Origin: Octopus vulgaris | Lineage: Eukaryota | Assembly (NCBI GenBank): GCA_951406725.2 | Contig: OX597817.1 | Location: forward strand, 129,332,001-129,396,000 | Direction of reading: 5' to 3' | DNA: 64,000 nucleotides | In this document: positions 41,484 through 58,269 of the stretch, piece after piece | How positions within the stretch are numbered: the stretch's first letter is position 1 | How the letters are laid out: the number at the start of each line of letters is the position of its first letter | The notes under the pieces: model-generated | What the model was told of the DNA's origin: nothing | Database searches by the model: none | Seen by the model: the letters and a program-made list of their open reading frames with translations, nothing else | Translations under genes and position numbers: made by a program

Positions 41484-41637
41484 TCACATGATCACATGAC
41501 CGACCAGGATATCAAAAGTTGCTATACACTTTAGGTGTTTTCGCTCAATAAACACTCACAACGCCCAGTCCGGGAATCGAAACCGCGATCCTACGACCGC
41601 GAGTTCGCTGCCCTAATCACTGGGCCATTGCGCCTCC
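41484..41637 (-). mobile_element. SINE family D, internally deleted
   Basis: The D head is joined directly to the end of tail type 3. Confidence 0.78.
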
Positions 41638-41919
41638 ATATATATATAGCAGTCATCACCACAGCTGGCTTTGTCATTATCTCTATTCACCAAAAATACA
41701 CACACACACACACACACACGCACGCACAAACACACTTGTCATCTTGCACACACACACACACACACACAGGCATTCCCTTTTTTTGGAACTCTCTTGCATT
41801 ATAAAACCATTTTTCAACTACCTCCAAATTCTGTTCTTTTCAACATGTGATCTCTTAAGCACCACCAGCTCAAATATTGTCTCCTCTGTCTTCCCTCCTT
41901 GGGATCTTTCCTTCTCCTT

Positions 41920-41954
41920 GTTTCCGACGAAGAGCTCCGCTCGAAACGTTAAAC
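41920..41954 (+). ncRNA. Minimal hammerhead-like motif, variant core CCGACGA, in a short PLE-like element (~41770-42065)
   Basis: GTTT-CCGACGA-A-GAGC tcc GCTC-GAA-ACGT-T-AAAC. Confidence 0.58.
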
Positions 41955-42077
41955 CCTCCTTCCTTTCTTTCCTGAGCGTCAATAATACTTTAATTGTTCC
42001 ACGTCCTGCGTTGCTGTGTTTTTTTCTCTTTTTTTCTGTGTTCTCTTGTTTGGATTAACTTTATATATATATATATA

Positions 42078-42444
42078 CTAGCAGTATCGCCCGGCGTTGC
42101 TCGGGTTTGTAACGGAAATAACTATAAAGCATCTTTAGAGAGTTATAGCCAAAAAATAGCAAAAAAATGGGGGAAAAAATGATGATAAATTTTTTTTTGA
42201 TAGTTAAAAAGGTCGAGTTGCGTCCCCTAGACCATCTGTGGTTTGTTTCTGATTGTCGACCCCATGTCGAATTTATCGATCTTTTTCAGAACTGGGGGAA
42301 CTTTTCAAAATTTTCGCTGCGTTAGTTTTGAATTATGACATTGGGCTATGTGTGTGTCAAGTTTCATCAGAATCGGTTGAAAGCCGTGGTCAGAGTGAGG
42401 GTACAACCAAACAGACACACAGAAACACACACAGACAAACTGCC

Positions 42445-42455
<11 letters not shown>
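42078..42455 (-). mobile_element. Non-autonomous Helitron-like element
   Basis: Minus-strand 3' end is a GC hairpin CCCGAGCAACGCCGGG, then about 7 nt, then CTAG|T. The 5' end reads TATATATAAAcggcagtttgtctgtgtg. Confidence 0.72.
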
Positions 42456-42478
<23 letters not shown>

Positions 42479-42481
<3 letters not shown>

Positions 42482-43412
42482 GGTTTCGAATGTCCTGTCC
42501 GTGTTTATTGTGTCGTCTTCTAAGAGTTATACGTTCTTGTCCATGTTGTATTTTTCTACATACCTTAACATATATTCCAGGCGCCCCGTACCCCCCTTAA
42601 CATTTATGTGAGCACATATTCTTAATAATTGGTACGACTCTCTGTTTGTCTCTCTCTCTCTCTCATTTTTACTTGATCTGTCCCCCTCTCTCTCTTTTCT
42701 CTCTACTCATCCTCTTTTTCTCTTCTCTTTCCTCTGATTCTTTGGTCTAGTCTTCCACTACCCTCCTATTTCTTTGTCTCGCTCTGCACTCACAGGTCAT
42801 TCTTCGACACCCATCCCTTCTCCTCTCTGATTCCTTCTTTCTCTCTCTTCTCTCTCTTTGTTGCGTTTGTCCCTCCTCTCTCTCTCTCTTCCTTTGCTTC
42901 TCTTTCTTTTCTTTTCCCTCTTCTCTGTCACGTGACTGTTGGCCGAAATCTGCCTTTCAGCCTCTGACCCTCGTTCTGTTAACATCGCTGTTTTCGTCCG
43001 CCACTATAAAGGCTTTTTCCATTGCGCCAGAGAAAAAATTTGTTTGCTTGTTATCAGTCGTAAGACACTGTTGTTTTCACCGTTAATGCTTCTGTATTTC
43101 ATGTTTCTGTATTCCATTATTGTTTTTTGTTTTTTTATATCTGTCCCTTTTGCTGTCCTGGTGTTCGTATGCATTCGATCCTTCTTCCAGGAAATCTACG
43201 CTTCCAGCTTAGTTTTTCTAATGCTCGTTGCTTGGTTTTTCTTGGAGGGCTGGCCGTGATCTAGTAATCTCAAGATTAATCAGCCGAAATTACTACGATG
43301 ATCCGGTTCTTGACTGAAGACTGAGGGTTTCGAATGTCCTGTCCGTGTTTATTGTGTCGTCTTCTAAGAGTTATACGTTCTTGTCCATGTTGTATTTTTC
43401 TACATACCTTAA
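42479..43412 (+). mobile_element. ~845-bp non-coding element with ~90-bp terminal redundancy (sister subfamily of the tandem unit), in (TA)n
   Basis: 42479-42568 repeats at 43324-43412. It shares the CT-rich block, TCACGTGAC and the ribozyme module with 43426-45708. Confidence 0.82.
43262..43324 (+). ncRNA. Non-circularly permuted hammerhead (C-B-A order), variant subfamily
   Basis: TAGTAAT-C-TCAAGA … TCAG-CC-GAA-ATTACTA … TCTTGA-CTGAAGA-CTGA. Confidence 0.72.
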
Positions 43413-43990
43413 TATATATATATATAAGCATTGATACGACTCTTAATCTTTCTTTCTCTCTCTCTCTCCTCCCTTATTCCCCCTCCTTTCTTTCCCTCTC
43501 CATCCGTTTCCCCCCCCTTCTACGTTTCTCTATCTCTCTCACCTCCAGCCCCCTCGATCTGTCTCTTTCTTCTCCTCCCTCGTCCACCTTCTCTCTCTTT
43601 TCATCTGTCCCTTTCTCTTGTCTTTTGTTCTCACGTGACCGCTAGCCGCTGTTGAACGCTCTTTTCGTTCCAGCAGCCGTTGAAGCAACACGTACTTGTT
43701 CGTCTCCCTGTGGCCATTAGGCACAACTTCATAAGCTAGCCCCATGCTCAATTCGTCCTGTCGAAAGACCCTTGTCCTACGTCCTGGTTTTATTTTGTTG
43801 TTTATTCTTTATACTTTATTTTTACCGTTATTGTTTTACGTTTTTGTATTCTTATTGTTGTCACGTATTCTGTATTTTTGTTCGTGTACTTCGTTCGCTT
43901 TCCGTCCTCGTGTTGTATACATTCGAAGCTTTCTTCCAGGGGATCTAATGCACTTGGCTTAGATTTCCCGTGGCGGGCTGGCCATATCGG

Positions 43991-44052
43991 AGCAATCTCA
44001 AGATTAATCAGCCGAAATTGCTAAGATGATCTGGTTCTTGACTGATGACTGA
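43991..44052 (+). ncRNA. Non-circularly permuted hammerhead, unit 1
   Basis: AGCAAT-C-TCAAGA … TCAG-CC-GAA-ATTGCT … TCTTGA-CTGATGA-CTGA; predicted AUC cleavage after 43997. Confidence 0.72.
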
Positions 44053-44772
44053 GGGCTTCGAATGTCCCGTCCTGTGGTTCTTGTGTCGTCTCTGTGGCGT
44101 TTCATGTTCTTGTCCATGTCTGTAATTATTTTTACTGTTTACCTATATAATCGGCGGCTACGTATCCACAATTGTCCTTATACGATAAGTATATTTTTTC
44201 TCAAGCATTGATACGACTCTTAATCTTTCTTTTCTCTCTCTCTCTCCTCCCTTATTCCCCCTCCTTTCTTTCCCTCTCCATCCGTTTCCCCCCCCCCCCT
44301 TCTACGTTTCTCTATCTCTCTCACCTCCAGCCCCCTCGATCTGTCTCTTTCTTCTCCTCCCTCGTCCACCTTCTCTCTCTTTTCATCTGTCCCTTTCTCT
44401 TGTCTTTTGTTCTCACGTGACCGCTAGCCGCTGTTGAACGCTCTTTTCGTTCCAGCAGCCGTTGAAGCAACACGTACTTGTTCGTCTCCCTGTGGCCATT
44501 AGGCACAACTTCATAAGCTAGCCCCATGCTCAATTCGTCCTGTCGAAAGACCCTTGTCCTACGTCCTGGTTTTGTTTTGTTGTTTATTCTTTATACTTTA
44601 TTTTTACCGTTATTGTTTTACGTTTTTGTATTCTTATTGTTGTCACGTATTCTGTATTTTTGTTCGTGTACTTCGTTCGTTTTCCGTCCTCGTGTTGTAT
44701 ACATTCGAAGCTTTCTTCCAGGGGATCTAATGCACTTGGCTTAGATTTCCCGTGGCAGGCTGGCCATATCGG

Positions 44773-44834
44773 AGCAATCTCAAGATTAATCAGCCGAAAT
44801 TGCTAAGATGATCTGGTTCTTGACTGATGACTGA
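44773..44834 (+). ncRNA. Non-circularly permuted hammerhead, unit 2
   Basis: Identical to unit 1; predicted cleavage after 44779. Confidence 0.72.
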
Positions 44835-45551
44835 GGGCTTCGAATGTCCCGTCCTGTGGTTCTTGTGTCGTCTCTGTGGCGTTTCATGTTCTTGTCCATG
44901 TCTGTAATTATTTTTACTGTTTACCTATATAATCGGCGGCTACGTATCCACAATTGTCCTTATACGATAAGTATATTTTTTCTCAAGCATTGATACGACT
45001 CTTAATCTTTCTTTTCTCTCTCTCTCTCCCTCCCTTATTCCCCCTCCTTTCTTTCCCTCTCCATCCGTTTCCCCCCCCTTCTACGTTTCTCTATCTCTCT
45101 CACCTCCAGCCCCCTCGATCTGTCTCTTTCTTCTCCTCCCTCGTCCACCTTCTCTCTCTTTTCATCTGTCCCTTTCTCTTGTCTTTTGTTCTCACGTGAC
45201 CGCTAGCCGCTGTTGAACGCTCTTTTCGTTCCAGCAGCCGTTGAAGCAACACGTACTTGTTCGTCTCCCTGTGGCCATTAGGCACAACTTCATAAGCTAG
45301 CCCCATGCTCAATTCGTCCTGTCGAAAGACCCTTGTCCTACGTCCTGGTTTTGTTTTGTTGTTTATTCTTTATACTTTATTTTTACCGTTATTGTTTTAC
45401 GTTTTTGTATTCTTATTGTTGTCACGTATTCTGTATTTTTGTTCGTGTACTTCGTTCGTTTTCCGTCCTCGTGTTGTATACATTCGAAGCTTTCTTCCAG
45501 GGGATCTAATGCACTTGGCTTAGATTTCCCGTGGCGGGCTGGCCATATCGG

Positions 45552-45613
45552 AGCAATCTCAAGATTAATCAGCCGAAATTGCTAAGATGATCTGGTTCTT
45601 GACTGATGACTGA
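45552..45613 (+). ncRNA. Non-circularly permuted hammerhead, unit 3
   Basis: Identical to unit 1; predicted cleavage after 45558. Confidence 0.72.
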
Positions 45614-45702
45614 GGGCTTCGAATGTCCCGTCCTGTGGTTCTTGTGTCGTCTCTGTGGCGTTTCATGTTCTTGTCCATGTCTGTAATTATTTTTACTGTT
45701 TA

Positions 45703-45799
<97 letters not shown>

Positions 45800-45807
45800 C
45801 GCATGGT

Positions 45808-46139
45808 GAAGGCGCATGGCTCAGTGGTTAGAGCGTCGAGCTTACGATCGTGAGGTTGTGAGCTCGAATCCCGGACCGGGCTACGTGTTGTGTTCTTGAG
45901 CAAAGCACTTTATTTCACGTTGCTCCAGTTCACTCAGCTGTAGAAATGAGTTGCGACGTCACTGGTGCCAAGCTGTATCGACCTTTGTCTTTCCCTTGGA
46001 TAACACTGGTGGCGTGGAGAGGGGAGGCTGGTATGCATGGGCGACTGCTGGTCTTCCATAAACAACCTTGCCCGGACTTGTGTCTAGGAGGGTAACTTTC
46101 TAGGTGCAATCCCATGGTCATTCATGACCGAAGGGGGTC

Positions 46140-46141
<2 letters not shown>
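45808..46141 (+). mobile_element. SINE family C head with tail type 2
   Basis: Head and core match 20007 up to aaatgagttg, then an unrelated 3' half. Confidence 0.82.
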
Positions 46142-46321: not shown

Positions 46322-46460
46322 TGGAGCCGCAATGGCCCAGTGATTAGGGCAGCGGACTTGCGGTCGTAGGATCGCGGTTTCGATTCCCAGACCGGGTGTT
46401 GTGAGTGTTTATTGAGCGAAAACACCTAAAGCTCTACAAGGCTCCGGCTGTACTCTTTCG
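46322..46460 (+). mobile_element. SINE family D 5' fragment
   Basis: Matches the 56277 head. Confidence 0.78.
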
Positions 46461-57905: not shown

Positions 57906-57941
57906 CTTTAACGTTTCGAGCCTACGCTCTTCCACAGAAAG
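57906..57941 (-). ncRNA. Minimal hammerhead-like motif, variant core CTGTGGA, in a short PLE-like element (~57817-58020)
   Basis: CTTT-CTGTGGA-A-GAGC gtag GCTC-GAA-ACGT-T-AAAG. Confidence 0.52.
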
Positions 57942-58018: not shown

Positions 58019-58077
<59 letters not shown>

Positions 58078-58269
58078 GTATAGGACGTTACCAACAGTAA
58101 ACAACATGAAATACGAAAACAAATGAGTTCAATACGGAAACAACGAAAGAAATGGAAAACAGAACAAGTAACATAAAGAACGATCCTTCATCAGTTGTCG
58201 GCTGTCTATCTACTCATCATTTCGAGCATTATGTATATACATATATATATATATACTATATATTATAAT

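Follow-up and report, generated by a model that had tools for sequence, protein, structure and literature searches.

A candidate hammerhead ribozyme with its core split at the A9/G10.1 step in a Penelope-type repeat of Octopus vulgaris

Introduction

Eckert et al. (2023) describe hammerhead ribozymes as three blocks, S with the cut site, G with GAAA and C with CUGAnGA, and the resulting scheme of six permutations rests on the assumption that the CUGAnGA core block is unsplittable (PMC10085705; this and the other sources below are cited for the portions of them that bear on the locus). The non-circular type SGC of that scheme was found in metatranscriptomes, with none in the genomes of known organisms, and the helix joining its stems I and II was shown to be required. 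Here we analyse a repeat of the Octopus vulgaris genome that carries a hammerhead core in the order S-G-C, within a window (the whole stretch of DNA analysed) of 64,000 nucleotides (nt; GenBank assembly GCA_951406725.2, contig OX597817.1, positions 129,332,001 to 129,396,000, forward strand). A first-pass annotation of the window had noticed the non-circular order and mentioned that such hammerheads had been reported. Both points hold, and as the order is that of the known type SGC, it is not new in itself. What appears to be new is a core split at A9/G10.1 by a four-way junction, no earlier description of which was found in the literature searched.

That literature, the scope of which left out subscription journals, Repbase, Dfam and preprint supplements, yielded no octopus, split-core or animal non-circular hammerhead. 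The part of the Eckert et al. supplement covered here has no occurrence of Octopus, mollus, kink, insertion or Metazoa (PMC10085705), and hammerhead variants with additional helices are mentioned in PMC13725137, whose cited sources, in the portion used, were traced only to Eckert et al. Animal retrozymes without long terminal repeats (non-LTR retrozymes) carry type I hammerheads in units of 150–450 base pairs (bp) (PMC7229834; bioRxiv 10.64898/2026.07.22.740005). We consider it probable that the octopus repeat is a non-autonomous Penelope-type element bearing a self-cleaving hammerhead with a new wiring.

Results

A hammerhead core with a displaced stem II strand

The window contains four copies of the predicted ribozyme, one in an insertion of a sister family (S) and three in a tandem insertion of the main family (M); their coordinates are collected in Table 1, with the anatomy of the first M copy. 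From 5' to 3' the order is P0a, P5, stem II 5' strand, P4a, stem III 5' strand, C17, stem I 5' strand, linker, stem II 3' strand, GAAA, stem III 3' strand, kink-turn, P4b, stem I 3' strand, CUGANGA and P0b. Stem III around GAA and an AUC site, and stem I adjoining both the cut and CUGAUGA, as proposed in the first-pass annotation, are present in the sequence. The hammerhead core has CUGANGA, GAAA, UH and A15.1-U16.1, and stems I–III close around it when the upstream strand of stem II is used, which restores the canonical G10.1-C11.1 pair next to G12 (weakly in family Y).

As this stem II strand lies upstream of block S, A9 and G10.1 are not neighbours in the chain and the core is split. Rather than being linked to stem II by 0–2 nt, A9 runs into P0, directly in families G, R, X and Y and with two intervening bases in M, S and T (by eye), and hairpin P5 precedes G10.1. 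The predicted arrangement is a four-way junction at the A9/G10.1 step, composed of the core, P0, P5 and stem II. The enclosing helix described in the first-pass annotation does exist, as a part of this junction rather than as mere enclosure. In terms of blocks, the wiring would be an S-G-C ring with all three links closed, its chain opened between A9 and G10.1 and the remainder of the element attached through P0. P4 connects stems I and II at their far ends, and the linker from stem I to stem II measures 5 nt in M and about 3–6 nt in X.

Covariation supports the upstream stem II

Pairing was scored in an alignment (A2) of 71 of 79 extracted copies from nine subfamilies, 8 near-duplicates or mis-cut rows being excluded; the pattern searches were designed to avoid both window forms, and by construction only 3 rows come from M and S together. 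Over all helices, 92.3% of 2247 cells were paired, with 184 double changes compared to 57.6 in shuffled alignments (none of 500 shuffles was as high), and slid-helix controls gave 15–42% paired. Stems III and I and P4, paired in 96.6%, 93.8% and 86.9% of cells, all covary, the last with double changes in 4 of its 7 pairs, and A15.1-U16.1 is present in 70 of the 71 copies. The covariation of stems I and III expected in the first-pass annotation was thus found across family copies; its compensatory change in the sister copy is a C-G to U-A double change in stem III, and N7, where that copy also differs, takes all four bases across families.

The upstream stem II pairing occupied 94.9% of 353 cells, with 66 double-change cells, a number reached in none of 500 shuffles. 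The types found in all are GGCUG/CAGCC, GGGCA/UGCCC, GAAGG/CCUUC, GAGCA/UGCUC and GAACG/CGUUC, including three contributed by the X group, in each of which G10.1-C11.1 is the first pair (22 of 30 loci). P0 was 88.3% paired and P5 96.5% over 4 pairs; double changes were absent from both, over 6 columns in the case of P0, so that within A2 neither covaries; their support comes from X and Y, where unrelated sequences form both, including a different hairpin at the P5 position. The inner part of P0 varies between families with its pairing kept (by eye).

In the first-pass annotation, stem II was instead a CUGA/UCAG helix containing a CC bulge. This pairing would make the locus a plain type SGC, with stem II built from the bases right after CUGANGA and the upstream pairing serving as an inactive or storage fold. 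Such a structure keeps A9 next to 10.1, as in all known hammerheads (PMC10085705), and its 4-bp downstream pairing exists in both M and S, yet across the alignment it was paired in 59.2% of 284 cells and showed no covariation signal, 467 of 500 shuffles reaching as many double changes. A flush downstream stem II occurred in none of 102 parsed loci of other families. If 0–2 inserted nt are allowed, 11 of 30 K-group loci and 21 of 30 X loci can form a 4-bp downstream stem, but none of the 30 G-family loci can do so. The downstream pairing would also place C at 10.1 and CC before G12, and the bases that follow A9 vary along with P0a and not with block G. As to the folds, the minimum free energy (MFE) structure contains the upstream stem II pairing and has no stem I, as a storage fold would; in six natural copies, the nested scaffold comes within 3.0–10.2 kcal/mol of the MFE (stems I and II uncounted, no pseudoknot penalties). 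Overall, we regard a plain type SGC as quite unlikely, and retain the split core with the upstream stem II.

Thousands of copies match the proposed architecture

The genome searched comprises 2.8 Gb in 227 contigs. The M and S forms are judged to be young and abundant: the best 40 of 1572 and the best 40 of 977 genome candidates, respectively, were all 100% identical. A first subfamily pattern gave 481 matches (control, 6), a full-length pattern with a non-C base after the core 4725 (reversed control, 3), the diverged G family 144 (reversed control, 0), a pattern with another stem II 109 (control, 19) and the deeply diverged X group 2274 (reversed control, 2); family Y yielded 42 matches and 462 candidates. 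The element as a whole has at least 7,000 pattern matches. The 4725-match pattern excluded C after the core, and this and the 2274-match pattern left stem II unconstrained. CUGANGA and GAAA were built into most patterns; in the Y set, found by BLAST, both were present in 12 of 15 copies.

Among loci from a search leaving H17 free, this base was C or A in 29 of 30 and G10.1-C11.1 was present in 27 of 30; in the family sets H17 was not G in 29/30, 30/30, 30/30 and 11/12 loci. Stems I, II and III together with P4 were all formed in 26/30 K-group, 24/30 G, 18/30 X and 1/12 Y loci. A null set was taken from metagenomes with a loose pattern (at least 119 stretches, 80 tested), and none of the 80 chance core matches satisfied the four-helix descriptor.

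That the motif arose by chance or by misassembly of a satellite repeat is a conceivable concern in a window as rich in microsatellites as this one. Against it stand the thousands of dispersed copies with near-zero controls (3, 0 and 2 matches in the reversed ones), the null set above, and contigs assembled from four public runs, two of them under other organism labels, that span the ribozyme region. These leave the explanation a next to negligible probability. In the same material, which consists of assembled contigs only, no joints and no end pile-up were seen.

The first-pass expectation that standard searches would miss the ribozyme was borne out. Rfam gave no match at gathering score in the whole window, and hammerhead was not among the 12 weak matches at E<=5 in 41800–44200; the circular order and covariance-model match that define hammerhead types I–III in Rfam are thus absent here.

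Two further observations concern the families. Identical ribozyme copies recur about 8.1–8.2 kb apart (C1:57292693, 57300824 and 57308981; also 97978032 and 97986208), which may reflect segmental duplications or a long element. Family Y (L231–L245) has a perfect 8-bp P5 hairpin, yet a bulged or mismatched stem II, and may be an older or intermediate form.

Many truncated copies begin at the predicted cut

A (TA)n run lies within 30 nt of the stem II 3' strand in 840 and 788 matches (overlapping sets). All 109 distinct loci of this kind listed on contig C1 were sampled, and their 5' boundaries were mapped against natural full-length copies. Of the 109, 26 begin exactly at the base after C17 (+1), and none at -1 to -4; 84 starts fall within +1 to +9 compared to 4 within -1 to -9, and 96 at or after the cut compared to 13 before it. 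S copies start at +1 in 5 of 20 cases and M-like copies in 2 of 7, with one upstream start each. The bond that the first-pass annotation had predicted to be cut, 3' of C43997, thus coincides exactly with a genomic truncation edge.

The beginning of many shortened copies exactly at the predicted site suggests cutting in the animal, and a reverse transcriptase running off RNA cut at the hammerhead site would be the simplest reading of the edge. We therefore infer cleavage 3' of C17 in vivo from the genomic record. The same pile-up could arise by stalling or template switching of the reverse transcriptase on a hammerhead-derived structure that does not cut, for example a binding site for this or another protein. 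For the anole Penelope-like element (PLE), insertion in vitro is reported not to need ribozyme activity, and none of the reads had its end at the cut (PMC11167929). The +1 base is U, which offers 1-nt microhomology to (TA)n; however, in 8 of the 26 +1 starts the preceding base is T or G and no clean TA run is present, and none of the 109 copies uses the AT at -3/-2, where the microhomology would be better. A structural stall at +1 would not be expected either, since the partner strands of stems I and III have already been copied by then. Tandem arrays do read through uncut sites, as a non-cutting structure would allow, whereas the avoidance of G at H17 and the free N7 across families speak against one. 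We thus hold a non-cutting structure to be unlikely.

Proposed docking of the cut site

At the boundary of P4 and stem III, a 3-nt bulge followed by tandem GA/AG pairs was found in 30/30 K-group, 21/30 G, 10/12 Y and 0/30 X loci, with U:G or C:C at 3b:3n in the K, G and Y loci. Both combinations are listed as folding in metal ions (PMC8191799), and a standard kink-turn is predicted to join P4 to stem III in these three groups. By the published rules, it would take up a 50-degree kink in Mg2+ or on binding an L7Ae-type protein. The stem III of the first-pass annotation stands as a helix, its outer A-U pair being better read as a kink-turn A in the main family. The S ribozyme has a 4-nt bulge in place of the kink-turn. 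The X group has AGUA opposite GAA, which we take to be a sarcin-ricin or E-loop motif.

In the proposed mechanism, the loop of stem III, which carries both the cut site and GAAA, acts as a head that would dock onto the two single strands beside P4 that belong to a base (the stem II 5' strand, the stem I strand and CUGANGA), giving a normal hammerhead core. Rough geometry, which assumes A-form rise and coaxial stems II and III, puts the gap at about 30 Å with a kinked arm, borderline for the reach of about 32 Å of one linker base, and at 73–76 Å with the straight arm of X (P4, E-loop, stem III). Self-docking would hence be at its limit in the kink-turn families and out of reach with the straight arm, which makes swapping with a neighbour a serious option. 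For the kink-turn families we estimate docking through the kink-turn and docking on a neighbour's base to be nearly balanced, leaning slightly to the neighbour; for the X families swapped docking is favoured.

A stricter version, itself a sub-case of the explanation preferred here, holds that in the families of the window the head must dock on the base of an adjacent unit or of another molecule, so that only multimers cut. The tandem arrangement of the copies and the absence of a kink-turn from S are consistent with this, as is the geometry, which is no 3D model, and dimeric cleavage has been proposed for minimal PLE hammerheads (PMC6765202). In contrast, the kink-turn is retained in three sequence-diverged groups, as self-docking would need, and SGC ribozymes of validated activity that have this distal link cleave while single copies are being transcribed (PMC10085705). 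We give obligate swapping a little under an even chance. Still more tentative, and in our estimate rather less than evenly likely, is the joint proposal that this is a seventh natural architecture, an S-G-C ring opened in the core by a four-way junction, with head and base connected by an exchangeable kink-turn, E-loop or bulge, and that on a retroelement of over 7,000 copies in an animal it would cut in vivo mainly by docking on a tandem neighbour, thereby sensing multimeric transcripts.

The carrier is probably a Penelope-type, retrozyme-like element

The longest ATG-initiated open reading frame (ORF) of the M and S units is 72 amino acids (aa). Units measure 699–885 nt in the families with tandem pairs; a spacing of 1445 nt in Y includes unrelated DNA. 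The 3' end is fixed: the distance from A9 to it is 100–101 nt in 22 of 24 distinct M arrays and 99 nt in 15 of 21 S arrays, and most of these run straight into (TA)n. The 5' ends are scattered over 85–613 nt in M (n=22) and 20–673 nt in S (n=14). A fixed tail past the ribozyme, variable 5' truncation and a (TA)n target are features of Penelope-type elements, and non-coding tandem repeats with one ribozyme per unit are those of retrozymes. By this analogy we infer that the carrier is a non-autonomous Penelope-type (retrozyme-like) retroelement. A Penelope-like reverse transcriptase would start about 95–100 nt after A9, at nicked (TA)n. Running off a cut end it would leave short copies starting at +1, and reading through uncut or circular RNA it would produce tandem arrays; cutting after C17 would trim read-through transcripts into unit RNAs. 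An inverted 5' segment turning inside the ribozyme near GAAA was noted by eye at L069, L074, L080, L085, L090, L182 and L198, with none flagged in the M and S sets.

Among the output listed of an ORF scan of loci L001–L170, and in a tblastn search of PLE-like proteins against ribozyme loci, only neighbours separated by microsatellites were found. The genome also contains a family of tandems of about 2.59 kb that encode 717 aa in one ORF and have a tail leading into (TA)n (L246–L257, e.g. C6:13764222-13767963), presumably PLE-like by its motifs and architecture. Its 107 scored copies are 99–100% identical, indicating a very young, active family, and its untranslated region carries a different, canonical-looking hammerhead-like motif with CCGA for CUGA (12 of 12 loci). 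Two partial proteins of the family, including the C-terminal 385 aa, matched no Pfam family. It has no ribozyme in common and no significant DNA match with the element described here; it is one family of 28,679 candidate places.

Other features of the window

Besides the M and S insertions, the window contains a deeply diverged X2-family copy (Table 1). The neighbours of the array between (TA)n runs are, by eye, tRNA-derived elements resembling short interspersed elements (45800–46140, 46325–46450 and 41490–41640). Another, pyrimidine-rich repeat contains a motif resembling a minimal type I hammerhead, with CCGACGA, GAAA, a short stem II and a palindromic stem III, at 41924–41952 (+), with similar motifs at 1551 (-) and near 57930 (-). 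We take it to be of the kind typical of Penelope-like elements; it had no Rfam match in the scan of 41800–44200.

Table 1. Features of the window (positions counted from its first letter; parts of the first M ribozyme are marked M1)
Feature	Positions	Strand	Basis	Details
S insertion	42479..43412	+		844-nt unit and tail, flanked by (TA)n runs; starts just 3' of a ribozyme core
S ribozyme	43172..43336	+		stem II 5' strand 43248-43252; predicted C17 43269; core 43314-43320
M insertion	43427..45704	+		three ORF-less tandem units, spacing 782 and 779 nt; 5'-truncated; fixed tail at (TA)n
M1, P0 5' strand	43920..43933	+	MFE	partner strand 44051-44064; helix leading into the four-way junction
M1, P5 hairpin	43936..43973	+	MFE	between P0 and G10.1
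M1, stem II 5' strand	43976..43980	+	covariation	G43976 = G10.1; pairs with 44009-44013
M1, P4 5' strand and non-bulged kink-turn strand	43982..43991	+		G3n, G2n, A1n
M1, block S	43992..44003	+		stem III 5' strand, C17 (43997; predicted cut 3' of it), stem I 5' strand
M1, block G	44009..44021	+		stem II 3' strand, G12-A13-A14, stem III 3' strand from A15.1
M1, bulged kink-turn strand and P4 3' strand	44022..44034	+		3-nt bulge, G1b, A2b, U3b
M1, shortened block C	44036..44064	+		stem I 3' strand, CUGAUGA (44042-44048), two nt, then P0 3' strand in place of stem II
Second M ribozyme	44702..44846	+		predicted C17 44779
Third M ribozyme	45481..45625	+		predicted C17 45558
(TA)n target microsatellite	45705..45796			at the fixed 3' end
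X2-family copy	58075..58232	-		deeply diverged, 5'-truncated; starts 3' of its own cut site; tail into (TA)n

Discussion

Several points weigh against a cleaving hammerhead with a split core. The split falls at the metal site of the hammerhead, A9/G10.1, which it may affect. Family Y fits poorly, with a stem II that needs a bulge. The covariation counts include related copies, so independent events are far fewer than the counts; within A2, a single event separating two clades accounts for most of the stem II changes, and X alone contributes independent stem II types. In X, moreover, a weak downstream stem II can be drawn with small insertions in the majority of loci, without covarying, and the strict AGUA/GAA occurs in only 8 of 30 decayed copies. 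The recently active family S lacks the kink-turn. The largest bin of the truncation histogram is +6 (31 of 109), explained by TA microhomology of the linker, and the histogram covers the region around the cut alone, without a control window elsewhere in the element and with X outside the sample. An autonomous partner was not found among the loci and PLE-like proteins searched. Finally, a split at A9/G10.1 contradicts an assumption of the published block model (PMC10085705).

If the structure is true, the hammerhead core tolerates strand exchange at A9/G10.1, against an indivisible CUGAnGA block, and offers a fourth attachment point for ribozyme engineering. It would also give a reason why descriptor and Rfam searches overlook whole families, and suggests that Penelope-type elements reported as hammerhead-less may conceal rewired hammerheads. 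Non-circular permutation would move from unassigned metatranscriptome contigs into an animal genome, the diverged subfamilies of which constitute a natural mutagenesis set. On our reading, the pile-up of insertions at the cut would be a genomic record of cleaved RNA as template, and bears on the role of the ribozyme in PLEs.

As a mobile element, the repeat resembles animal non-LTR retrozymes in its non-coding tandems with one hammerhead per unit and in coexisting with autonomous Penelope-like elements (PMC7229834; bioRxiv 10.64898/2026.07.22.740005). It differs from them in its longer units and its non-circular, split-core ribozyme, and it is known here from DNA. Partial tandems, heavy 5' truncation, (TA)n targets, an occasional inverted 5' piece and a fixed tail past the ribozyme are shared with Penelope-like elements (PMC11167929; bioRxiv 10.1101/2021.04.23.441226), unlike which the M and S units have no ORF; the hammerheads of PLEs are mostly minimal type I (PMC6765202).

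With respect to structure, natural departures inside the core were likewise described by Perreault et al. (2011), whose insertions are of 1–2 nt (A6a, U13a, 2a/2b), in contrast to the two-helix junction at A9/G10.1 found here (PMC3088659). The predicted kink-turn shares with the standard one the 3-nt bulge, the tandem G:A and A:G pairs, U:G or C:C at 3b:3n and, in the main group, mostly C:G at -1b:-1n, but here it bridges the stem I–stem II helix and stem III of a ribozyme and is replaced in S and X (PMC8191799).

The closest relative is type SGC, represented by HRIMA-1 and its variants (PMC10085705), with which the octopus ribozyme shares the order of S, G and CUGANGA, the short linker between stems I and II, the helix between the other sides of these stems (P4 here), the core bases and the predicted cut. 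Type SGC has a CUGAnGA block that runs on into stem II, and its two chain ends lie between blocks C and S. Here, in contrast, the 5' strand of stem II comes before block S, the A9/G10.1 step is broken up by P0 and P5, and both strands of P4 connect to stem III by way of the kink-turn or another loop. Type SGC comes from metatranscriptomes, the present ribozyme from a high-copy repeat of an animal genome. The predicted ribozyme would thus work like type SGC, but it lacks an uninterrupted block C ending in a stem II strand. As its blocks are not contiguous, we class it as a new architectural variant.

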